NCBI GenBank assembly: GCA_031553915.1
Contig: JAVBKT010000002.1
Location: 148,109-212,108 of the forward strand
Direction: 5' to 3'
Length of the DNA: 64,000 nt
Source of the DNA: Bacillota bacterium
Lineage (GTDB): Bacteria; Bacillota; Dehalobacteriia; UBA4068
Shown here: piece after piece, positions 3,718 through 52,896 of the stretch
Layout: every line of letters starts with the position of its first letter
Numbering within the stretch: the first letter of the stretch is position 1
The notes under the pieces: model-generated
Seen by the model: the letters and a program-made list of their open reading frames with translations, nothing else
Told to the model about the DNA's origin: nothing
Database searches by the model: none
Program-made: the position numbers and the translations under genes

Positions 3718-3830
3718 ACCATATTTGCGCCTAACTGGCCAGATAAAAATAGTCCGTAATTTTTAAATATCCTCTTGACTCTCCCCCTGGCGGAGATTGT
3801 AGACTGAGTACATGAAAGGAGATCTGCACT

Positions 3831-4655
3831 ATGTTTCGCATCGGAGAATTTTCCAAAATGAGCCTGACTACGATCAAAACCCTCCATTATTATGATGAGG
3901 TAGGACTGCTCAAACCTGCTCATATTGACCCCTTTACCGGATACCGCTTTTATACTACAGAACAGCTTATTCTTCTGCACAAAATCCAATCATTTCGCCA
4001 AATTGGCCTGTCTATTGATGAGATCCGGCAATTAATTTCCGGTATTGCTGCTGACTTTATCATGCAAAAAAGAAAGAGCGAGCTGCTTGGGGAAATCTCC
4101 GCTAAACAAGAGCAACTCTCCCGGATTGAATTTATTCTATCTGGAAAAGAGGAGGATTATTTTATGAACTATGAAGCTACCATCAAGGATTTACCCGAGT
4201 ATATTGTCTATTCAAAACGTTTGGTGGCACCGAGCTATGCGGATTACCTCACCATCATCCCTGCTATTGGCCAAGCGGTTGCTGCAAAATATCCGGATCT
4301 TAAATGCACTGCGCCGGAATATTGTTGCGTCGTCTATCTGGAACCCGAATATAAAGAAAAGGACATTCATATCGAGTTTTTTGAAGCTGTTGAACAGATG
4401 AAAGAAAATTTTGATGATATCGTTTTTAAGAAGCTGCCCCAGACAACCGTTGTTTCGGTATTGCATAGAGGCCCTTATCAACAAGCAAAAGGCCCAAGCC
4501 TGTCTGACGCTTACCTTTTCCTCGCCAAATGGATAGAAGATAATGGTTACACAATTACCGGCCACCCCCGGGAAAGCTATATCGACGGTATTTGGAACAA
4601 AGATAATGCAGAAGATTGGCTGACCGAGGTGCAATTCCCCATCAGCAAGATATAA
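3831..4655 (+). CDS. MerR family transcriptional regulator with C-terminal GyrI-like effector-binding domain (BmrR/Mta-like)
   Basis: N-terminal MerR HTH (FRIGEFSKMSLTTIKTLHYYDEVGLLKP...GYRFY), a coiled-coil linker, and a C-terminal ~150 aa GyrI-like domain. Confidence 0.85.
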   Translation: MFRIGEFSKMSLTTIKTLHYYDEVGLLKPAHIDPFTGYRFYTTEQLILLHKIQSFRQIGLSIDEIRQLISGIAADFIMQKRKSELLGEISAKQEQLSRIEFILSGKEEDYFMNYEATIKDLPEYIVYSKRLVAPSYADYLTIIPAIGQAVAAKYPDLKCTAPEYCCVVYLEPEYKEKDIHIEFFEAVEQMKENFDDIVFKKLPQTTVVSVLHRGPYQQAKGPSLSDAYLFLAKWIEDNGYTITGHPRESYIDGIWNKDNAEDWLTEVQFPISKI

Positions 4656-4686: not shown

Positions 4687-6513
4687 CTATTTTTCTCTGC
4701 TAGAAACGCGCAGCCGCTCTGTTCTGCTTAAAATCTTTTTGCGTAAGCGTAAGTTCTTCGGGGTGATTTCCAGCAGCTCATCATCTGCCATAAACTCCAA
4801 GCACTGCTCCAGCGACAGTTCTCGCGGCGGCACCAGACGCAGCGCGTCATCAGAGCCGGAGGCGCGGACATTGCTCAGCTGTTTCTTCTTGCAGACGTTA
4901 ACGGAAATATCCTCATTTTTGGGGCTGACGCCAACTATCATCCCTTCATAAACTTTTACGCCGGGGTTAATAAACAGCTGGCCCCTTTCCTGCGCTTTGA
5001 ACAAGCCATAGGTCACAGCTACACCGTTTTCCCAGGCCACCAGCGAACCGCTTTCGCGTTTGGTGATTTTCCCCTGGAACTCCTGATATTCAGCAAAAAC
5101 AGAGCCCATAATGCCCTCGCCGCAGGTATCAGTCAAAAACTCATTGCGATAGCCAAACAGACCGCGCGCCGGAATCAGATATTCCGCTTTCATCCTTTTC
5201 CCGGATGGCATCATATCCAAAAGCTGGCCTTTGCGCCGACCCATTTTATCAGCGACAAAGCGGAAACTATCTTCCGGCACATCAACATGCAGCCTTTCCA
5301 TTGGTTCATAAATTTTGCCGTCAATTTCCTTAAACAAGGCCTTGGGCGGTGAGACAGCAAACTCATAGCCCTCGCGGCGCATCGTTTCAATCAAAATTGC
5401 CAGATGCATCTCCCCGCGGCCCAGCACACGAAAAGCCTCTGTGCTGTCTGTTTCCAGTACCCGTAGAGACACATCCTTGAGCAGTTCGCGGAACAGCCTG
5501 TCACGCAGCTGGCGGGAGGTCACATATTCGCCTTCCTGTCCGGCAAAGGGGCTGTCATTGACGGAGAAAGTCATTTCTACCGTTGGCTCACCCACCTGGA
5601 CAAAAGCAATCGGCTCAATATTATCAGTATCGCAGACCGTGTCGCCGATATTAATATCCTCAATGCCGCTAAAGCAAACAATATCCCCGGCCAGGCCTTC
5701 TTCAACCGGAACCCTGTTTAAGCCCTCGATGGCAAAGAGGTTGTTGATCTTGCCCTGATACGGCTGTTTATCGTCATAATAATTGGTGACCATCACTTGT
5801 TGGGCAGCTTTAATTGAGCCCCGGTCTACCCGTCCAATGCCGATTCTGCCAACAAAGCTATTATAGTCAACAGAAGACACCAGCAATTGCAAAGATGAGT
5901 CAGCGTCAGCGATCGGCGCGGGAATATGCTTAACAATCGTATCAAAAAGCGGGTTGAGATCGCTTGGCTCATCATCCGGCTCCACAGAAGAAAGCCCGCG
6001 TTTTGCTGAACAATAAATAATCGGGCTGTTTAGCTGATCCTCTCCGGCATTAAGCTCTTCCAAAAGCTCAATAGTCTCCAGGGCTACATCCAGCGGGCGC
6101 GCCTCCGGGCGGTCTATTTTATTGACGACAATAATCACCTTGTGATTCATCTCCAAAGCCTTTTGCAGCACAAATCTGGTCTGAGGCATCGGCCCCTCAA
6201 AAGCGTCAACCAGCAGCAGCACGCCATTGACCATTTTCAAAATGCGCTCCACCTCACCGGAAAAATCAGCATGGCCGGGGGTGTCGACAATATTAATTTT
6301 CATCCCGTCACGAAAAACCGCGGTGTTCTTGGCCAGAATGGTGATGCCTTTTTCACGTTCCAAATCATTATTGTCCATCACCCGCTCTTCTACTGCCTGA
6401 TGGCTGCGAAAAGCGCCGCTTTGCTTGAGCATTTGGTCGACTAAAGTCGTTTTACCATGATCAACATGGGCAATAATGGCGATATTACGAATATTAGATA
6501 TTTCTTGTAACAT
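4687..6513 (-). CDS. typA: Translational GTPase TypA/BipA
   Basis: 608 aa protein. N-terminus is [20 protein letters not shown] with GTPase G1-G4 motifs and EF-G-like domain organisation. Confidence 0.95.
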
Positions 6514-7820: not shown

Positions 7821-8756
7821 ATGCCACTTGTTACCAGCAAAGAAATGTTTGACAAGGCCTATGCGGGCGGCTATGCCATCGGCGCCTTTAATGTCAATGA
7901 TATGGAAATCATCCAGGGCATCACCATGGCAGCGGCGGAAACCAAAGCGCCGCTTATTCTCCAGGTGAGCGCCGGAGCGCGCAAATATGCCAGCCATACT
8001 TATCTGATGAAATTGGTCGAGGCTGCCATTATTGAAACAGATTTGCCGATCTGCCTTCATCTTGATCATGGGGACACCTTTGAGCTATGCAAATCTTGCG
8101 TTGACGGCGGTTTTACCTCGGTGATGATCGACGGCTCTCACCACAGCTATGAGGATAATATCAAACTTACGCGGCAAGTGGTTGAATACGCTCATGCCCA
8201 TGGCGTAGTGGTCGAGGGTGAGCTGGGCCGTTTGGCCGGCGTTGAAGATGATGTTAATGTCTCCGAGGAGGATTCTTCCTATACCCGCCCGGAAGAGGTT
8301 GAAGACTTTGTCGGCCGCACCGGCGTAGATTCCCTGGCCATTGCCATTGGCACCAGCCACGGCGCTTTTAAATTTAAACCCGGGACAAAACCGCAGCTGC
8401 GTTTTGATATTCTGACAGAGGTGGAAAAACGTCTGCCTAATTTCCCTATCGTTCTTCATGGCGCCTCTTCAGTGATGCCGGAATACGTCAAAATGATTAA
8501 TGCCAATGGCGGCAATATGCCGGATGCGATCGGCGTGCCCGAAGATATGCTGCGGCAAGCCGCACAAATGGCTGTGTGCAAAATCAATATTGATTCTGAC
8601 CTGCGCCTGGCCATGACCGGGACAGTGCGCGAATATCTTAACACTCACGCAGACCATTTTGATCCGCGCCAATATTTGGGTCCGGCGCGGGAGAATATTA
8701 AAGAGATGGTCAAGCACAAAATCATTAATGTCCTCGGCTGCGATAATAAAGCCTAG
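7821..8756 (+). CDS. fba: Fructose-bisphosphate aldolase class II
   Basis: 311 aa protein with GGYAIGAFNVNDME, HLDHG and SHGAFKF motifs. RBS AAAGGAGGT precedes the ATG. Confidence 0.95.
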   Translation: MPLVTSKEMFDKAYAGGYAIGAFNVNDMEIIQGITMAAAETKAPLILQVSAGARKYASHTYLMKLVEAAIIETDLPICLHLDHGDTFELCKSCVDGGFTSVMIDGSHHSYEDNIKLTRQVVEYAHAHGVVVEGELGRLAGVEDDVNVSEEDSSYTRPEEVEDFVGRTGVDSLAIAIGTSHGAFKFKPGTKPQLRFDILTEVEKRLPNFPIVLHGASSVMPEYVKMINANGGNMPDAIGVPEDMLRQAAQMAVCKINIDSDLRLAMTGTVREYLNTHADHFDPRQYLGPARENIKEMVKHKIINVLGCDNKA

Positions 8757-45498: not shown

Positions 45499-46152
45499 TC
45501 AGGCCTCCTGCTCTTCGAGGTTCTCCTTAAACTGCGTTGGCACATAGTCAGTCAAAACAATGGTGCCCTCAGAAATCATCGCCAGCTTCAGCGGCGTTAA
45601 GCCGGCGTCAGGGGGAACAGTCGCCACATGTTCGCCAATGCGCAGCTGCTGGGCTTGCATATTATAGACGAGAATATAGGCCGCCTCATCACCTTCGGCG
45701 CCCGCATGCAGTACGCCGCGGCAGCAGCCCATAACCACAATATTGCCGGTAGCGATAATCTCTCCGCCCGGGTTAATATCACCCATGACCACAGCATTGC
45801 CGCGCACAGAAAGCCTTTGTCCGCTTCTGACGCTTTTGGTTACCAGCAAACTGTTGCCGCCTGCTGTTTGATAAATCATCTCCGCCTTTTCATCGCTTTG
45901 CACGATATGCGGAATAGCCTTGCCGGGTTTGATATGATATTTCTTCAGAATTCCTTGGATGATTGCCATTTCTTCTTCAGAAAACTGATTGGGCATGTCA
46001 ATAATATAATCAGCATTGATAAAGAAATCACCACTGCTCAGCAGCTTTTCTTCCAATGATGCACAAACCTGGCCAAAACCAGCCTGCTCGGTATCAAAAT
46101 AAAAAACCAGTCCTTGTGGTGTGCCTTTGATATTGACAATGTTTTGATTCAT
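45499..46152 (-). CDS. minC: Septum site-determining protein MinC. It is stand-alone here: no minD or minE is adjacent.
   Basis: 217 aa. The C-terminal beta-helix region (VRSGQRLSVRGNAVVMGDINPGGEIIATGNIVVMGCCRGVLHAG) aligns with B. subtilis MinC. Confidence 0.75.
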   Translation of the reverse strand: MNQNIVNIKGTPQGLVFYFDTEQAGFGQVCASLEEKLLSSGDFFINADYIIDMPNQFSEEEMAIIQGILKKYHIKPGKAIPHIVQSDEKAEMIYQTAGGNSLLVTKSVRSGQRLSVRGNAVVMGDINPGGEIIATGNIVVMGCCRGVLHAGAEGDEAAYILVYNMQAQQLRIGEHVATVPPDAGLTPLKLAMISEGTIVLTDYVPTQFKENLEEQEA

Positions 46153-46264
46153 TTATGGAGCCTCCAATTGAATATTATCTATATAATATATTATGCTGCA
46201 TTTAACTATAATAGTTTCGCCTAAAACGACTATTTTTCCTGCCGTATTTTGGGAGTAAAACTTT

Positions 46265-46999
46265 ATGAGACATGGTTTTGATGAAATCTACAAAAGAATG
46301 AAAAAAGCGATTATCGCTCATGCGATGATTAGTGATACCAGTTCTATTATGGTCGGGCTTTCCGGAGGTAAAGACAGCCTGACTTTGCTCTATGCGCTGA
46401 AACAATTTCTGGCTATCTCAAAACACAAATACAGCTTGGCGGCCGGGCATGTCTCGCTTGGCTTCCCCGGTGATGATATAACCCTGATGCAGGAGTTTTG
46501 CCAAGATTTGCAGGTGCCTTTTTATTGGACAAAAACAGAAATCGGCGCTATCGTTTTTGACCACCGCAAGGAAAGCAATCCCTGCTCGCTGTGCGCGAAA
46601 ATGCGCCGGGGCGCCCTAAACAGCCTCGCTAAAGAGAACGGCTTTGCCAAAATAGCTTTGGCGCATCACCTGGACGATGTGACGGAAACCCTGCTCTTGA
46701 ACCTCTTTTATGAAGGCCGCATTGCCAGCTTTAAGCCTGTCACCTATCTCGACCGTATGGATTTAACTGTGATCCGTCCCTTTGTCTATGTGCCGGAAGA
46801 GCAAATCAGCTATTTTGCCAGAAAAGAAAATCTGCCAATCAGCCGCAGCAATTGTCCGCAAAACTGTCTGGGCAAAAGGCAGGAGATGAAAGAAATTGTC
46901 GCCGCAATCGAAAAAATGGCGCCGATGGGCAAAGACAGAGCCACCGGCGCGCTTGATCGTATGTTTGACAGTGATTGGGATGGCAAAAGAGCTAAATAG
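46265..46999 (+). CDS. PP-loop ATPase of the TtcA / tRNA 2-thiocytidine biosynthesis family
   Basis: 244 aa. PP-loop SGGKDS and conserved Cys residues (CSLCAKMRRG, NCPQNC). Confidence 0.7.
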   Translation: MRHGFDEIYKRMKKAIIAHAMISDTSSIMVGLSGGKDSLTLLYALKQFLAISKHKYSLAAGHVSLGFPGDDITLMQEFCQDLQVPFYWTKTEIGAIVFDHRKESNPCSLCAKMRRGALNSLAKENGFAKIALAHHLDDVTETLLLNLFYEGRIASFKPVTYLDRMDLTVIRPFVYVPEEQISYFARKENLPISRSNCPQNCLGKRQEMKEIVAAIEKMAPMGKDRATGALDRMFDSDWDGKRAK

Positions 47000-47001
47000 C
47001 T

Positions 47002-47631
47002 TTAGCGTAAATTATTTTTTACCCCTTTATAAATGAGCTCAGCCTTCATCGTGCTGTCAAAAATCATTTCATCTGCCGCATAGTTGATCTTTTCCGCATA
47101 TTCGCGGTCTTGCATCAATTTTGTATTGACATAAACATTGAGCGCCGCCGCTTCCAGGGCAGCCTTGCAGACAGTAGCTCCGCAGCCGGCATCGCTGATC
47201 ATCAGCTGCGAGCCTTTGTCGGCAAATTCAGCGATAATATCAATCGCTTCACAGCTGAGCTGCATAATTTGCAGCGGCACCGCTACCGCATCTTTCAGGC
47301 ATTGTTCCATCACCACTGCTTTGGCGGCTTTTTCTTCTTCCGTATCAGCGGGCAGGCCATAGGCTTTGGCTAGTGGCCCAAAAACCCGGGCATCCTCTTC
47401 CACCAAAAACAGCAGCTCTTTTTCCAGCTCTGCGGAGCGTGTTTTCAGGGCAACTATCGCCTCTTCGACATAGGCGTATTTTTTTTTGCCTAGAGTATAG
47501 CTGCCCACCATATCGCCGAGGGCAATACCAAGGGCCGCCACCAGGGCCGCTGCGCCGCCACCGCCGGGATAGGGCTGTTTAGCCGCCAGAGCCTCGACAA
47601 ACTCCCTGCAAGATAAATCACTAATCGCCAT
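47002..47631 (-). CDS. Formiminotransferase-cyclodeaminase C-terminal (FTCD_C) family protein / methenyl-THF cyclohydrolase-like
   Basis: 209 aa. LSCREFVEALAAKQPYPGGGGAAALVAALGIALGDMVGSYTLGKKKY matches the FTCD_C family signature. It is 12 nt downstream of the ligase gene on the same strand. Confidence 0.75.
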   Translation of the reverse strand: MAISDLSCREFVEALAAKQPYPGGGGAAALVAALGIALGDMVGSYTLGKKKYAYVEEAIVALKTRSAELEKELLFLVEEDARVFGPLAKAYGLPADTEEEKAAKAVVMEQCLKDAVAVPLQIMQLSCEAIDIIAEFADKGSQLMISDAGCGATVCKAALEAAALNVYVNTKLMQDREYAEKINYAADEMIFDSTMKAELIYKGVKNNLR

Positions 47632-47643
47632 TTTTATATCCTC

Positions 47644-49275
47644 TTATTTAGATGTTTGCTGAGCGACAATTGCCACTGCGTTATATTTTTCCCGCAGCTT
47701 GGGTTTTTCGATTTTACCGGTTGGGTTGCGTGGAACTTGGTCAAAAACAATTTCCCGCGGGCGTTTATAGCGGGGCAAAGCAGTGCAAAATTCTTCGATT
47801 TCAGCAATGCTGCAATCTGCGCCATCCTTCAATTCGATAATCGCCATCGTGATTTCACCCAGGCGTTTATCTGCCTTACCAATAACCGCTACGTCTTTAA
47901 TTTTATTATTAGTACGCAGAAAATCCTCAATTTGCACCGGATAAATATTCTCGCCGCCAGTGATAATGACGTCTTTTTTGCGGTCAACCAAAAAGATAAA
48001 ACCATCTTCATCAACCATCGCCATATCACCGGTGCGCAACCAGCCGTCGCACAAAACAGCGGCAGTCGCTTCCGGGTCTTTGTAATAGCAGGTCATCAGG
48101 CCCGGGCCTTTGACAATCAGCTCACCGACCTGTCCCTGCGGCACATCTGCAAACGCTGTGTCTACCACGCGCGCCTGCCAGCCATAGCCGGCAACGCCGA
48201 TGGCGCCGACCTTATGGATATTTTCCACGCCCAAATGCACGCAGCCAGGGCCAATGGATTCGCTCAGGCCATAGTTGGTATCATATTGATGCTGCGGGAA
48301 ATGCTCTTTCCAGCGGCGGATCAGGCTGGGCGGCACCGGCTGCGCGCCAATATGCATCAGGCGCCAATGCGAAAGATCATACTCTTCCAGCTTCACTTCT
48401 CCGCTGTCGATAGCGTCCAGAATATCCTGCGCCCAGGGAACCAGCAGCCAGACAATTGAGCACTGCTCCAGGGAAACTGTCTCCAAAATCCACTTGGGGC
48501 TGACGCCGCGCAAGAGTACCGATTTGCAGCCCACCAACAGGCTGCCGAACCAATGCATTTTGGCGCCGGTATGATATAGCGGCGGGATGCAGAGGAAACA
48601 GTCCTCTTTTGTTTGCCCGTGATGCTTCTGTTCGCACAAAACAGCATGCATCAGGCTTTGATGATTATGCAAAATCGCCTTGGGAAAACCGGTGGTGCCG
48701 GAAGAAAAATAGATCGCGGCATCATCTTCATCCGTTAAGGTAATGTTCGGTTTTTTGCTGCGGCAATATGAGATATATTCATAGTAGCTCAAAGCATATT
48801 CCGGGCAGGTAGCGCCCACATAGAATATCTTCTTAATACCCGGGATCTTATCCTTGATGCAGCTAATCCGCTGCTCAAACTCCGGCCCAAAGATCAGCAT
48901 ACTGGCATCAGAAAGATCCAAACAATAATCAATTTCATCTGCGGAATAACGATAGTTCAGCGGCACTGCCAGCGCCCCTGTTTTCAAAATGCCAAAATAA
49001 ATCGGCAGCCATTCCAAACAGTTCATCAGCAAAATTGCAACCTTGTCACCCTTTTTCACTCCCTGCGATAGCAGGAGATTAGCAAAACGGTTGGCGCGGC
49101 AATCAAAATCCTCCCAGCTGATTTCGCGGCGATAGGGGTTTTCATCCTCTGTTTCTACCAGAGCGTATTCCTTCCATATTTCGTCTTGCGGACGCTGTTC
49201 CGGGTTGATTTCCACCAAAGCCACATCTTCCGCGAAAAGCTCGCTGTTCTTCTCCAAAAATTCTGTAATCGGCAT
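47644..49275 (-). CDS. AMP-dependent synthetase/ligase (acyl- or aryl-CoA ligase-like), regulated by a T-box
   Basis: 543 aa from MPITEFLEK. AMP-binding motif SSGTTGFPKAI and C-terminal TGDMAMVDEDGFIFLVDRKKDVIITGGENIYP. Start is the ATG at 49273-49275, 7 nt after AAAGGAG. Confidence 0.85.
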   Translation of the reverse strand: MPITEFLEKNSELFAEDVALVEINPEQRPQDEIWKEYALVETEDENPYRREISWEDFDCRANRFANLLLSQGVKKGDKVAILLMNCLEWLPIYFGILKTGALAVPLNYRYSADEIDYCLDLSDASMLIFGPEFEQRISCIKDKIPGIKKIFYVGATCPEYALSYYEYISYCRSKKPNITLTDEDDAAIYFSSGTTGFPKAILHNHQSLMHAVLCEQKHHGQTKEDCFLCIPPLYHTGAKMHWFGSLLVGCKSVLLRGVSPKWILETVSLEQCSIVWLLVPWAQDILDAIDSGEVKLEEYDLSHWRLMHIGAQPVPPSLIRRWKEHFPQHQYDTNYGLSESIGPGCVHLGVENIHKVGAIGVAGYGWQARVVDTAFADVPQGQVGELIVKGPGLMTCYYKDPEATAAVLCDGWLRTGDMAMVDEDGFIFLVDRKKDVIITGGENIYPVQIEDFLRTNNKIKDVAVIGKADKRLGEITMAIIELKDGADCSIAEIEEFCTALPRYKRPREIVFDQVPRNPTGKIEKPKLREKYNAVAIVAQQTSK

Positions 49276-49364
49276 TTCCATACTCCTTTCGATAACTACC
49301 ATTTTACCATCAGTTTTCCGTGCTACCGTGTCCGGCGGCAAACAGCCGGTGACTACTGCCGCTA

Positions 49365-49640
49365 TTTATAAACAAAAAAAACTCCCACCCCATCCAAGGG
49401 GCGAGAGACATCCCGCGGTACCACCCAAGGTTCACGATGAAGCTCATACCTCACCGCCTTAGCAAGTCAAAACCTTCTTGACTCATGCGTGATAACGGAC
49501 GCAACACGTCGCAGCCCACATTAAGCAGTGTTTGTTTGCTGCGCAGCTCCGAAGATGTATTCACCACTTGTTCCCATGCGCCTCTCAGCAGCCGGCAGCT
49601 CTCTGTCTGGTACCTCAAATGATTACTTGTTCTTCATCAT
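49365..49640 (-). promoter_or_regulatory. T-box riboswitch leader with a probable Tyr (UAC) specifier
   Basis: On the minus strand, Stem I opens with GGCGAUGAUGAAGAACAAGUA, which resembles the glyQS leader. The upper helix AUCAUUUG pairs with CAAGUGGU. The 3' side of the specifier loop is GAA-UAC-A, followed by UCUUC pairing with GAAGA. The conserved T-box sequence AACCUUGGGUGGUACCGCGGGA follows, then a terminator hairpin and U8. A candidate promoter TTGACA-17-TAGCAT lies around 49675-49703. Confidence 0.75.
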
Positions 49641-49763
49641 CGCCTTTTGATATGTTGATATAAGCCACTTCTGGCTCAGTTTGAATGCTATCATAACCTT
49701 TTTTGTTTGTCAAGCATCTGGGGCAAAATAAAACCCCCTTTCTACCTGGAGCATAGAAAACTT

Positions 49764-50564
49764 CTATTTGTACTGCTCAGTAAAAATTTCGTCATTGTAC
49801 CATTCGTCAAAACGTAGTGATTTAAACGGTTGGCGGATGCTGATTGCCTGATTCGGGCATTGATAAATACATCTCATGCATAAACCGCAGCGCCACTTAA
49901 AATGAACAGCTTTTCCCTTTTCTTCAATGTTGCAATTCGGGCAGTTCTTAACGCATTTGCAGCAGTGGCTGCAACCGCTATCGGCATAGAAAAACTTGCC
50001 TAAAAGAGGGGCGCCAAGCCATTCAGTTTTCCCAAGAATGCGCAGAAATCTGGCAGCAAAGCTTGTTTTCAGCTGATGCGCGGTAAGATGAGTTATTTCT
50101 TTGGCAATATCCGGGATATCCCTGTCAATTTTTCCTAATATCAGGCGTACCCTCGGTTCATCATATTTCACAATAAAATTAGACGGCATTTCCAAAAGCC
50201 GATTATAAAAAACCGCATACCCCTTATTGCCCAGCCGCTTAATAAGCGTATCAGAGGAAGCAAAATTAACTACGCTTTCTTCGCCCATGGTGCCGATAAT
50301 AAATGTATCTAGCCTACTTAAAACCGGCAGTTGCTTAACAAAATTCACCACAATTTTAGGCGCGTTAAAAGCGTGGACAGGGTAAGCTATTCCCAACAAG
50401 TCAAATTGGGATAAATCAAGCTGGCTTATTTGGGCGTTTTCTATGCTTAAACAATCTACCGTAAACTGGGCTTTTTCAAATTCATTAATCAGCCTATTAA
50501 CCACATATTTGGTCATCCCTGTTCCAGAGAAGAAGCATAAACAGATTTTTTTCATTACTGTCAC
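49764..50564 (-). CDS. EFR1-family ferredoxin (flavodoxin-like domain + 2x[4Fe-4S])
   Basis: 266 aa. N-terminal flavodoxin-like region (ICLCFFSGTGMTKYV) and a C-terminal region with CxxCxxCxxxCP clusters. Confidence 0.55.
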   Translation of the reverse strand: MTVMKKICLCFFSGTGMTKYVVNRLINEFEKAQFTVDCLSIENAQISQLDLSQFDLLGIAYPVHAFNAPKIVVNFVKQLPVLSRLDTFIIGTMGEESVVNFASSDTLIKRLGNKGYAVFYNRLLEMPSNFIVKYDEPRVRLILGKIDRDIPDIAKEITHLTAHQLKTSFAARFLRILGKTEWLGAPLLGKFFYADSGCSHCCKCVKNCPNCNIEEKGKAVHFKWRCGLCMRCIYQCPNQAISIRQPFKSLRFDEWYNDEIFTEQYK

Positions 50565-51072: not shown

Positions 51073-52896
51073 TCATATCCGCTTTGGCAAGTGTTTATTT
51101 GCCGCAACATGGGCCAAAAATTCCCGCGCCTTGACAGAGTCTTGCTTCATTTGCGCCTTTAATTGCTCAAAGTCTTTGAACTTTTGCTCCGGCCGCAAAT
51201 ATTGTCCCAGCCAAGTTCTGATCTTTTGACCATAAAGGTCAAGGTCAATGTCAAACAAATGCGCCTCGATCAGCGGCCTGGTAATGCCGCCAACTGTCGG
51301 CTTGACACCAAAATTAACCACACCGTCATAAGTTTGGCCATTATGCTCTATTTTGGCAGCATAAACGCCGTTTCGCGGCACTGCCTGATTTTGCTCCGGG
51401 TAAAAATTAGCTGTCGGATAGCCAAAGGTATGCCCGAGCTGATTGCCATAAACAACTTCTCCCTCCAGGGCAAACCAATAGCCAAGCATCTCATTGACCG
51501 CCGCTAAATCACCGGCCAGCAAATGCTTACGGATATTTGAGGAGCTGATGACGCCAAAAGCAGACTCAACCTCATCAACAATAGTCACATCAATATTATA
51601 CTCACCGCACAATTGGCGCAAAAGCGCAGCATCGCCTATGCCGCCTTCAGCAAAGGTAAAGTTGTAGCCGACAATCAGATGATTGGCTTTAAGCTTCTCG
51701 ACAATAATCTCCCGCACAAAGTTCTCAGGGCTAATATTCATCAGCTCCGGAGTAAACTCCATGGGCACGACCTTATCAATCGCAAAATAGTCTACCAGCA
51801 AAGAGAGCTTAAGCTTTTCTCCGGTCAAAAGCTGCGGCGCATCGCCTTTGATCAAAGTCAGAGGATGCGGATCAAAGGTCAAAATTTCACTTTTGCTGCC
51901 CAGGCTTTTCTTCATAGCAGCCAGCTGTTCGAAAAGAGCCCGGTGCCCTAAATGCAGCCCATCAAAATTGCCGATGGCAATAGCAATATCATCATAAGCG
52001 TCAATCAATACTTTTTCCATTTTGATCACTCTGTTTTCCGCCTTGTGGCTGATTCGTCCCATAGCCAGCAGGCGCTTATCCTCAGCCACCACCCGTACTG
52101 CGCTCGCGGGCGGCAAAGCTCCCTGATAAGGCAAATCATGTCCATGACTGATTGCTGAAATGCTTTTATCGCTGACCGTGACTGCCGGGATAAAATCGAT
52201 TACTTCATTTACCGGCAAGATAAAGCTCATATCTCCCTCAGCTATAAGCTGCTGGATTTGCTCCAGAGTATAACTGTCGGCAATGGCAAAATCCCCTGTT
52301 TTGCTGCGCTGCAAGGCGCAGAGATGTGCCGGTAAACCAAGGGCCTGCCCAATATCAAAGGCCAAAGAGCGAATATAGGTCCCTGTGCCGCAATCAATTT
52401 CGATATCTGCATAGGCCAACTCCCCGGGAGAAAAGCATTGCAAACGGATAGCATATATCTCCACTCTTCTCGGGGCCAAATCAAGCTGTTCGCCTTGGCG
52501 GGCCAGCTTATACAGGGGGATGCCCCCCTTTTTTATCGCCGAAACCATCGGCGGAATCTGCTCGATCTCACCGCAAAAAGCAGGCAAAATCTCTATCAAT
52601 TTGGCCTCTGTAAGAGAGCTGGCATCAGCTTGGGCGAGAATCTCCCCGGCCGCATCATAAGTGCTGGTGGCAATGCCAAAGCAAATTCTGCCGGCATACG
52701 TTTTTGTCTGCCCCATGACCAAGGTGCTCAAGCGGGTGGCTTTGCCCAGGCAGATGGGCAAAACTCCGGTAGCGTCAGGATCGAGCGTACCGCAATGGCC
52801 GGCCTTAACATGCAAAAGCCGCTTGATAGCGGCTACGGCAGTTTGCGAGGTTATTCCCTGCCCTTTATTAAGGTTAATGAATCCATCAAAACTCAT
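51073..52896 (-). CDS. In-frame fusion of tRNA pseudouridine(55) synthase TruB with bifunctional riboflavin kinase/FMN adenylyltransferase RibF
   Basis: One 607 aa ORF. Residues ~1-295 are TruB (GHCGTLDPDATGVLPICLGKATRL, ending in the ...RVIKMEKVL C-terminal motif). The frame then continues without a stop into RibF (AIGNFDGLHLGHRALF FAD-synthetase region, then the riboflavin kinase C-domain). The junction is at about 52011-52020. Confidence 0.8.
   Translation of the reverse strand: MSFDGFINLNKGQGITSQTAVAAIKRLLHVKAGHCGTLDPDATGVLPICLGKATRLSTLVMGQTKTYAGRICFGIATSTYDAAGEILAQADASSLTEAKLIEILPAFCGEIEQIPPMVSAIKKGGIPLYKLARQGEQLDLAPRRVEIYAIRLQCFSPGELAYADIEIDCGTGTYIRSLAFDIGQALGLPAHLCALQRSKTGDFAIADSYTLEQIQQLIAEGDMSFILPVNEVIDFIPAVTVSDKSISAISHGHDLPYQGALPPASAVRVVAEDKRLLAMGRISHKAENRVIKMEKVLIDAYDDIAIAIGNFDGLHLGHRALFEQLAAMKKSLGSKSEILTFDPHPLTLIKGDAPQLLTGEKLKLSLLVDYFAIDKVVPMEFTPELMNISPENFVREIIVEKLKANHLIVGYNFTFAEGGIGDAALLRQLCGEYNIDVTIVDEVESAFGVISSSNIRKHLLAGDLAAVNEMLGYWFALEGEVVYGNQLGHTFGYPTANFYPEQNQAVPRNGVYAAKIEHNGQTYDGVVNFGVKPTVGGITRPLIEAHLFDIDLDLYGQKIRTWLGQYLRPEQKFKDFEQLKAQMKQDSVKAREFLAHVAANKHLPKRI

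Follow-up and report, generated by a model that had tools for sequence, protein, structure and literature searches.

The leader of Bacillus subtilis tyrS, the founding T-box, presents a UAC specifier codon followed by a purine in a Stem I that has a K-turn, an AGAGA bulge, and a distal loop. It also carries an F-box and a 14-nt T-box sequence with UGGU, and it acts by transcription attenuation through mutually exclusive antiterminator and terminator folds, with a U-run. A second described system is aryl-acid salvage, in which an acid is converted to its coenzyme A (CoA) thioester, then to a 2-oxo acid, and then to an amino acid. Formation of phenylalanine from phenylacetate in rumen bacteria is credited to Allison (1965), as cited in PMC7356843. 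Salvage by an arylacetate-CoA ligase and indolepyruvate:ferredoxin oxidoreductase (IOR) operating in reverse has been reported for methanogens (PMC6737245, PMC13285125), and salvage by the same pair of enzymes has been proposed for Bacteroides (PMC13285125). Here, we describe a locus that has features of both systems, located on the minus strand of a 64,000-nt stretch of a Bacillota bacterium genome (contig JAVBKT010000002.1; the whole stretch is referred to as the window). It consists of a T-box leader, a gene for a FadD-like AMP-forming ligase, and a gene for an FTCD_C-family protein. We consider it probable that a tyrosine-responsive T-box here switches on a 4-hydroxyphenylacetate-CoA ligase for salvage to tyrosine through the two-subunit IOR (IorAB), with the FTCD_C gene as a passenger.

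An Rfam scan of the window gave two matches above the gathering score, a tRNA-Leu and a T-box leader (RF00230), the latter being the sole cis-regulatory RNA match in the 64 kb. The T-box match scored 101.1 bits (gathering score, 93; E = 3.9e-21) and extended over the full model (positions 1 to 219 of 219). Coordinates of the leader and of the genes behind it are collected in Table 1. Stem I begins at its 5' end with GGCGAUGAUGAAGAACAAGUA. As in the tyrS leader, its base forms a K-turn (GAUGA...GGAG), which aligns to the RF00230 consensus, and an AGAGA bulge is followed through to a distal loop, GGCUGCUGAGAG, that fits the same consensus. The specifier loop contains an S-turn, with AAGUA on the 5' side and GAA on the 3' side, and the F-box reads CCGUUA. 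The 14-nt T-box sequence GGGUGGUACCGCGG is found at positions 49413 to 49426 (minus strand); within it (AACCUUGGGUGGUACCGCGG), the bulge UGGU is the complement of the tRNA A73-CCA end. The discriminator base of tRNA-Tyr is A73, which is compatible with this bulge; no tRNA-Tyr gene was found within the window.

The 3' part of the leader has the two alternative folds expected of attenuation. The arm CUCGCCC is common to the antiterminator, as its 3' arm, and to the terminator, as its 5' arm, and the two folds are therefore mutually exclusive. Folded alone, the terminator region reached −24.9 kcal/mol (z = −2.8), and the gap between this value and the −9.7 kcal/mol of the antiterminator is the usual T-box asymmetry, which uncharged tRNA overcomes. 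The promoter-like site lies ∼35 nt upstream of Stem I and was the sole minus-strand promoter-like match within positions 46000 to 50200. For comparison, ligase loci were surveyed in 80 species genomes, and further relatives, among them metagenome contigs, were added (loci are labeled L0xx or P0006); 10 distinct ligase-linked leaders, that of the window included, formed the sample for covariation and for specifier assignment. Compensatory changes were present at 22 of the 35 consensus pairs, indicating that these leaders are under selection. The window leader is thus a genuine, canonical, transcription-attenuating T-box. A preliminary description of this DNA had proposed such a leader, and the full-model match and the folded antiterminator and terminator with its U8 tract bear this out, at coordinates that had been right to within ∼10 nt.

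Table 1. Features of the T-box, ligase, and FTCD_C unit, by position in the window
Feature	Position	Strand	Basis
Promoter-like site TTGACA, 17-nt spacer, extended TG-n-TAGCAT	49685..49713	-	10/12 consensus matches
T-box leader: Stem I, Stem II, IIA/B, Stem III, antiterminator	49394..49649	-	RF00230 full-length match
Specifier codon UAC (Tyr), GAA before, A after	49557..49559	-	3' half of Stem I specifier loop, RF00230 alignment
Antiterminator with T-box bulge UGGUACC	49399..49426	-	−9.7 kcal/mol folded alone; UGGU (49420-49423) would pair with tRNA 3' ACCA
Intrinsic terminator: 10-bp stem, 7 G-C pairs (49382-49407), and U8 (49374-49381)	49374..49407	-	Terminator scan
Class I adenylate-forming (ANL) ligase, 543 aa, FadD-like, predicted 4-hydroxyphenylacetate-CoA (arylacetate-CoA) ligase	47644..49275	-	PF00501 and PF13193, context
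FTCD_C protein, 209 aa, FchA-type cyclohydrolase/cyclodeaminase	47002..47631	-	PF04961, 207 bits

In the Stem I fold, the specifier loop reads GAA-UAC-A and is closed by UGAAGA pairing with UCUUCG. By the TBDB rule, the specifier comprises nucleotides 2 to 4 from the 3' end of the specifier bulge, with a 3' C preferred (PMC7778990); UAC occupies that position and has the preferred C. The alternative frames AUA, ACA, and AAU were ruled out, since the covariance-model alignment, the GAA-NNN-purine layout, and the TBDB position all lead to UAC. The same codon was found in nine of the ten distinct leaders (window, L081/L082, L083/L084, L089, L002, L079, L003, L051, and L076), and GAAU[A/U]C is invariant across the alignment. 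The sole variant, L005, differs in the middle base of the specifier alone and reads UUC (Phe). Judged from the leader sequence, then, the window T-box reads tRNA-Tyr (anticodon GUA) through UAC, as the preliminary description had it.

The pairing of this T-box with the ligase recurs well outside the window. In close relatives (L081/L082, the P0006 contig, and L083/L084), the order rpsO-ligase-FTCD_C-TtcA-MinC-MutS-MutL is kept. The ligase is 76% identical to that of the window in L081/L082 and the P0006 contig, and L083/L084 were found through their FTCD_C protein, which is 64% identical to that of the window. A UAC T-box precedes the ligase in all four of the close-relative loci for which DNA exists (L081 to L084; 111.4 and 101.9 bits); the P0006 contig gave protein order only, and its leader is outside this count. 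Four further loci (L089, which is Christensenellales-type, L002, L079, and L003) have a UAC T-box and a stand-alone ligase, with no FTCD_C gene in the cassette. Two loci (L051 and L076) contain an operon of a UAC T-box, a major facilitator superfamily (MFS) monocarboxylate transporter, the ligase, IorA, and IorB, and L005 has the order of a UUC T-box, the ligase, a sodium/solute symporter family (SSF) transporter, IorA, and IorB. In a neighbor-joining tree of the ligases, the stand-alone Tyr-T-box ligases, including that of the window, form one clade, and L051/L076 and L005 fall elsewhere. Thus, at least three groups acquired or retained the link between the ligase and an aromatic-amino-acid T-box.

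Two loci stand apart from this count. Among GTDB relatives, the ligase of L001 is the closest to that of the window (74% identity) and lies inside the Tyr-T-box clade; the gap upstream of it (216 nt, 3767 to 4001) gave no T-box signal even at E ≤ 1, which looks like loss of the riboswitch. A motif match in L061, GGATGGAACCGCG, was rejected as a T-box because it lies inside coding sequence.

The gene directly behind the leader starts with an ATG at 49275, preceded at 7 nt by AAGGAG, with the terminator ∼100 nt upstream of the open reading frame (ORF). Its product has an AMP-binding domain (PF00501, 234 bits) and an AMP-binding_C domain (PF13193, 42 bits), and the ANL core motifs SSGTTGFPKA, YGLSES, RTGDMA, DRKKDVIITGGENIYP, and PTGKIEK are present in the translation. 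The two downstream genes are as first described, a 543-aa AMP-binding ligase and, 12 nt further on, an FTCD_C protein. The ligase family is conserved to a striking degree (65 to 76% identity) in Clostridia and in certain other anaerobes. Among solved structures, Mycobacterium tuberculosis FadD5 and FadD13 are nearest, followed by feruloyl-CoA synthetase and 4-coumarate-CoA ligases, all matched over the full length (E = 2e-74 to 1e-49). With these enzymes the window ligase shares the core motifs; unlike them, to which its similarity is at family level, it has a context and a regulation that belong to aromatic amino acids and not to lipids or phenylpropanoids. By its own sequence alone it is an acyl- or aryl-CoA ligase, nothing narrower. 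It also differs from the ligases of the described salvage route, which are PaaK-type enzymes of ∼435 aa with an AMP-binding_C_2 domain. PaaK (TIGR02155) is an AMP-forming ANL enzyme that acts on arylacetates, as predicted for the window ligase, and enzymes of both kinds are encoded in the same IOR clusters, but PaaK belongs to another ANL subfamily: at ∼430 aa it is ∼110 residues shorter, and its C-terminal domain is PF14535 and not PF13193. No PaaK model (TIGR02155) was among the best 25 of the 108 NCBIfam matches of the window ligase.

Genomic context suggests a narrower role. An orthologue of the ligase (65 to 74% identical) adjoins iorA-iorB in 47 of the 80 species genomes. The neighboring IorA (579 aa) passes the IOR alpha equivalog model TIGR03336 (703.8 bits; cutoff, 650.9), and IorB (190 aa) passes the IOR beta model NF005325 (265.8 bits; cutoff, 230). 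A divergent Na+/solute symporter and a PaaK-like ligase are frequent in these loci, so that the neighborhood of the relatives, with ligase, IorA, IorB, monocarboxylate transporter, and PaaK-like ligase, resembles that of the described salvage route. A further T-box separates the PaaK-like gene from iorB in 22 loci of the Fimenecus/Acutalibacteraceae type (at ∼8020 to 8320 in most; L022, L028, L031, L033, L039, L042, L045, L049, L052, L053, L056, L060, L064, L066-L070, L072, L073, L077, and L078). Its specifier is UUC (Phe) in all 21 readable loci; the L072 leader runs off the end of the locus. The oxidoreductase of these clusters converts arylpyruvates to arylacetyl-CoAs and back. A Tyr specifier on the FadD-like ligase versus a Phe specifier on the PaaK-like ligase fits a division in which the Tyr-controlled enzyme takes the hydroxylated acid.

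The cultured species Ruminiclostridium herbifermentans (L088; CP061336) has the gene order ligase-IorA-IorB-PaaK-ACT, and no T-box was found in this cluster. The last of these genes (L088, 12764 to 13201) stands immediately after the PaaK-like gene and encodes a 145-aa ACT-domain protein, a possible amino-acid-sensing regulator in genomes without the riboswitch. The same locus contains, at 684 to 784, a subthreshold match to RF03531 (57.8 bits; gathering score, 65.2) inside a UvrD-helicase ORF. RF03531 is a Clostridioides difficile small RNA described as lying inside a helicase gene, and the L088 match is likewise placed.

From these observations a working model can be proposed. When tyrosine is plentiful, charged tRNA-Tyr could not stabilize the antiterminator, and the 10-bp terminator with its U8 tract would halt transcription ∼100 nt before the ligase gene. 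When tyrosine is scarce, the free ACCA end of uncharged tRNA-Tyr would pair with the UGGU of the bulge and the antiterminator would form, so that RNA polymerase would transcribe the ligase gene and, in this genome, continue into the FTCD_C gene. The FadD-like AMP-forming ligase would then convert an acid, most likely 4-hydroxyphenylacetate, to its CoA thioester. IorAB, presumably encoded elsewhere in this genome, would use reduced ferredoxin and CO2 to carboxylate the thioester reductively to 4-hydroxyphenylpyruvate, and transamination would yield tyrosine. The predicted chemistry is that of the described salvage route. We favor the biosynthetic direction because the T-box induces on starvation and an AMP-forming ligase is effectively irreversible; this direction has likewise been argued for IOR and arylacetate-CoA ligase in Bacteroides (PMC13285125). 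A 4-hydroxyphenylacetate-CoA ligase was one of two hypotheses put forward in the preliminary description, and it is the one favored by the IorA/IorB genes beside 47 of the 80 orthologues and by the two operons in which a Tyr T-box heads the MFS transporter, ligase, IorA, and IorB.

Several observations weigh against this proposal. (i) The window ligase reaches no NCBIfam equivalog cutoff, the best 25 of its 108 matches all lying well below, and we know of no characterized enzyme in its family; for these reasons its substrate is assigned from genomic context. (ii) IorAB was never found within 4 to 8 kb of the ligase in the stand-alone Tyr-T-box clade to which the window belongs, and tblastn found no homologues of IorA, IorB, PaaK, SSF, or MFS proteins in the 64-kb window. 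Functional transfer to the window ligase therefore draws on its 65 to 70% identity to IOR-linked orthologues and on L051/L076. (iii) About 70 of the 80 orthologue loci lack a T-box. (iv) The Phe specifier of L005 implies that the specificity of the ligase may be broader than 4-hydroxyphenylacetate. (v) Given the 12-nt gap and the lack of a detected promoter, the FTCD_C gene of the window is probably under Tyr control too, and its probable cotranscription behind the Tyr T-box is what the passenger model explains least well.

Some of these points lend credit to an explanation that we regard as unlikely, namely, that the T-box is real and Tyr specific while the ligase acts on another tyrosine-linked aromatic acid (4-coumarate, 3-(4-hydroxyphenyl)propionate, 4-hydroxyphenyllactate, or 4-hydroxybenzoate) or is a broad arylacetate-CoA ligase without preference for the hydroxyl group. 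Feruloyl-CoA synthetase and 4-coumarate-CoA ligases are among its PDB neighbors (E = 1e-59 to 1e-49), the same ligase family has a Phe specifier in L005, and the clade of the window has no adjacent IOR. However, the gene abuts IorA/IorB in 47 of the 80 loci, and the CoA substrates of IOR are arylacetyl-CoAs. No ammonia-lyase, enoate reductase, or lactate dehydratase genes recurred beside the ligase orthologues in the surveyed loci, and the Tyr/Phe split between FadD-like and PaaK-like ligases fits a partition of substrates.

The FTCD_C protein was considered separately. PF04961 covers it end to end, and its best PDB match is the methenyl-tetrahydrofolate (methenyl-THF) cyclohydrolase 7vg4 (E = 7.5e-38). 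In its domain and in the association of its orthologues with folD or folC-fhs, it resembles FchA and the cyclodeaminase domain of FTCD (PDB 7vg4, 1tt9, and 1o5h); unlike FchA, it scores 180.9 bits against the NF045657 FchA equivalog cutoff of 275 and is placed behind a Tyr T-box gene. Orthologues with 59 to 60% identity adjoin folD (L085/L086) or folC-fhs (L087), as is normal for FchA. An FTCD_C gene was beside the ligase in none of the 80 genome loci, and in the lineage of the window the gap between the two genes varies (7, 12, 48, or 158 nt). In L083 this gap (4869 to 4909) contains a perfect 19-bp hairpin flanked by an A-run and a U-run (−22.5 kcal/mol; z = −7.3), a structure that resembles an intrinsic terminator working in both directions and that the consensus scanner missed. 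On these four grounds, the FTCD_C protein looks like an ordinary FchA-type folate enzyme and a lineage-specific syntenic passenger, in line with the first impression that it has no obvious link to tyrosine. Of the three-part arrangement first described, the T-box and ligase recur, as noted above, in at least three groups, whereas the FTCD_C partner is confined to close relatives.

The opposite interpretation is that the T-box, ligase, and FTCD_C genes form a true functional module, in which the activation of aryl acids, induced when tyrosine is scarce, is coupled to a folate-dependent step of the cyclohydrolase/cyclodeaminase type (formimino- or methenyl-THF). In its favor, the ligase and FTCD_C genes are paired in all close relatives sampled (five contigs and the window), with a T-box wherever DNA exists. 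The 12-nt gap of the window contains a GAGGA ribosome-binding site and no promoter-like site, and one paper notes that earlier discussion has connected the methanogen aryl-acid/IOR route with p-aminobenzoate (pABA). If true, this would tie aromatic-acid salvage to one-carbon or pABA/folate metabolism, a connection with no described counterpart. Nevertheless, we consider a module of this kind improbable in view of the absence of the gene from the 80 other ligase loci, the folate-gene context of its orthologues, the strong hairpin between the two genes in L083, and the T-box-ligase units without FTCD_C in L089, L002, L079, and L003.

Slightly less probable still is an ordinary fatty-acid CoA ligase behind a relic T-box or an incidental fusion, with no link to tyrosine. 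The top NCBIfam match is PRK06187 (long-chain-fatty-acid-CoA ligase, 412.7 bits), FadD5 and FadD13 are the nearest structures, homologues are annotated acyl-CoA ligase in their source records, and most orthologues lack the T-box. Nonetheless, the PRK06187 score is below the cutoff of 476, the T-box link is found in at least three groups with an aromatic specifier every time, the compensatory changes in the leaders reflect selection, and IorAB is adjacent in 47 of the 80 loci. Least probable of all is the other hypothesis of the preliminary description, amino-acid adenylation, whether by a stand-alone A domain or by an amino-acid ligase, with tyrosine or a precursor as the substrate. The ANL superfamily membership and a distant match to a gramicidin synthetase A domain (E = 5.8e-33) are outweighed by the lack, in the ORF and its vicinity, of any carrier or condensation domain, by stronger matches that are all acyl- or aryl-CoA ligases, by an IorAB context that points to a CoA thioester product, and by the fact that induction of a tyrosine consumer on tyrosine starvation makes no regulatory sense.

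Compared with the described systems, the riboswitch is of a textbook kind. What appears to be new in the favored reading, in which a Tyr T-box acts on a 4-hydroxyphenylacetate-CoA ligase, is its target, a CoA ligase that serves precursor salvage; the T-box would thereby give a functional label to a very widespread, uncharacterized ligase family and to the direction of the IOR pathway. Unlike tyrS, the window T-box precedes a FadD-like CoA ligase and a folate enzyme, and not an aminoacyl-tRNA synthetase, a de novo biosynthesis gene, or a transporter. Unlike the ligases of the described salvage route, the window ligase is detached from iorAB and placed under a T-box. In the literature searched, no T-box was linked to indolepyruvate/IOR, phenylacetate, a CoA ligase, or a ferredoxin oxidoreductase, and Wels et al. 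(2008) make no mention of such targets. The suggestion that this would be an undescribed member of the T-box regulon holds for that literature, but such a target may be tabulated in a database such as RegPrecise or TBDB.

T-box specifiers are a direct readout of the amino acid that a gene serves. Here they would label two uncharacterized ligases in the widespread IOR clusters of gut and rumen Clostridia, the FadD-like enzyme for tyrosine and the PaaK-like enzyme for phenylalanine, and T-boxes that turn on at starvation point to an IOR cluster that works biosynthetically, turning aryl acids into amino acids. The question of whether IOR in bacteria forms phenylacetate-type metabolites or uses them up bears on host health (phenylacetate, 4-hydroxyphenylacetate, and p-cresol precursors), and it has been raised for Bacteroides (PMC13285125). 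The favored reading would add precursor salvage by CoA activation to the target classes of the T-box regulon, and it offers an enzyme family to assay and a cultured carrier, R. herbifermentans.

The surroundings of the unit in the window are as follows. Past the FTCD_C gene, the flank consists of a convergent TtcA-like gene and then minC, mutS, and mutL; on the other side lie an EFR1 ferredoxin gene, rpsO, and a truB-ribF fusion. The FTCD_C gene (minus strand) and the TtcA-like PP-loop gene (plus strand) converge at 46999 to 47002, where their stop codons are 2 nt apart and no terminator-like structure was found. L081 and L082 have an extra 2-thiouracil desulfurase-like gene (PF04463) at the same place. 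The EFR1-family ferredoxin (49764 to 50564, minus strand) has flavodoxin-like and 4Fe-4S parts and scores 137 bits against NF038196 (cutoff, 75). Its gene sits between rpsO and the T-box promoter, in a slot that is empty in L081 and occupied by a Na+/alanine symporter gene in L083. Homologues of the EFR1 ferredoxin or of TtcA were found beside the ligase in none of the 80 genome loci, and the EFR1 slot is thus a variable one and not that of a ligase partner. Finally, a single 607-aa ORF at 51073 to 52896 (minus strand) encodes TruB (tRNA pseudouridine synthase) fused to RibF (FAD synthetase and riboflavin kinase), and the same fusion, at 607 to 608 aa, is present in L081, L082, L083, and L084.

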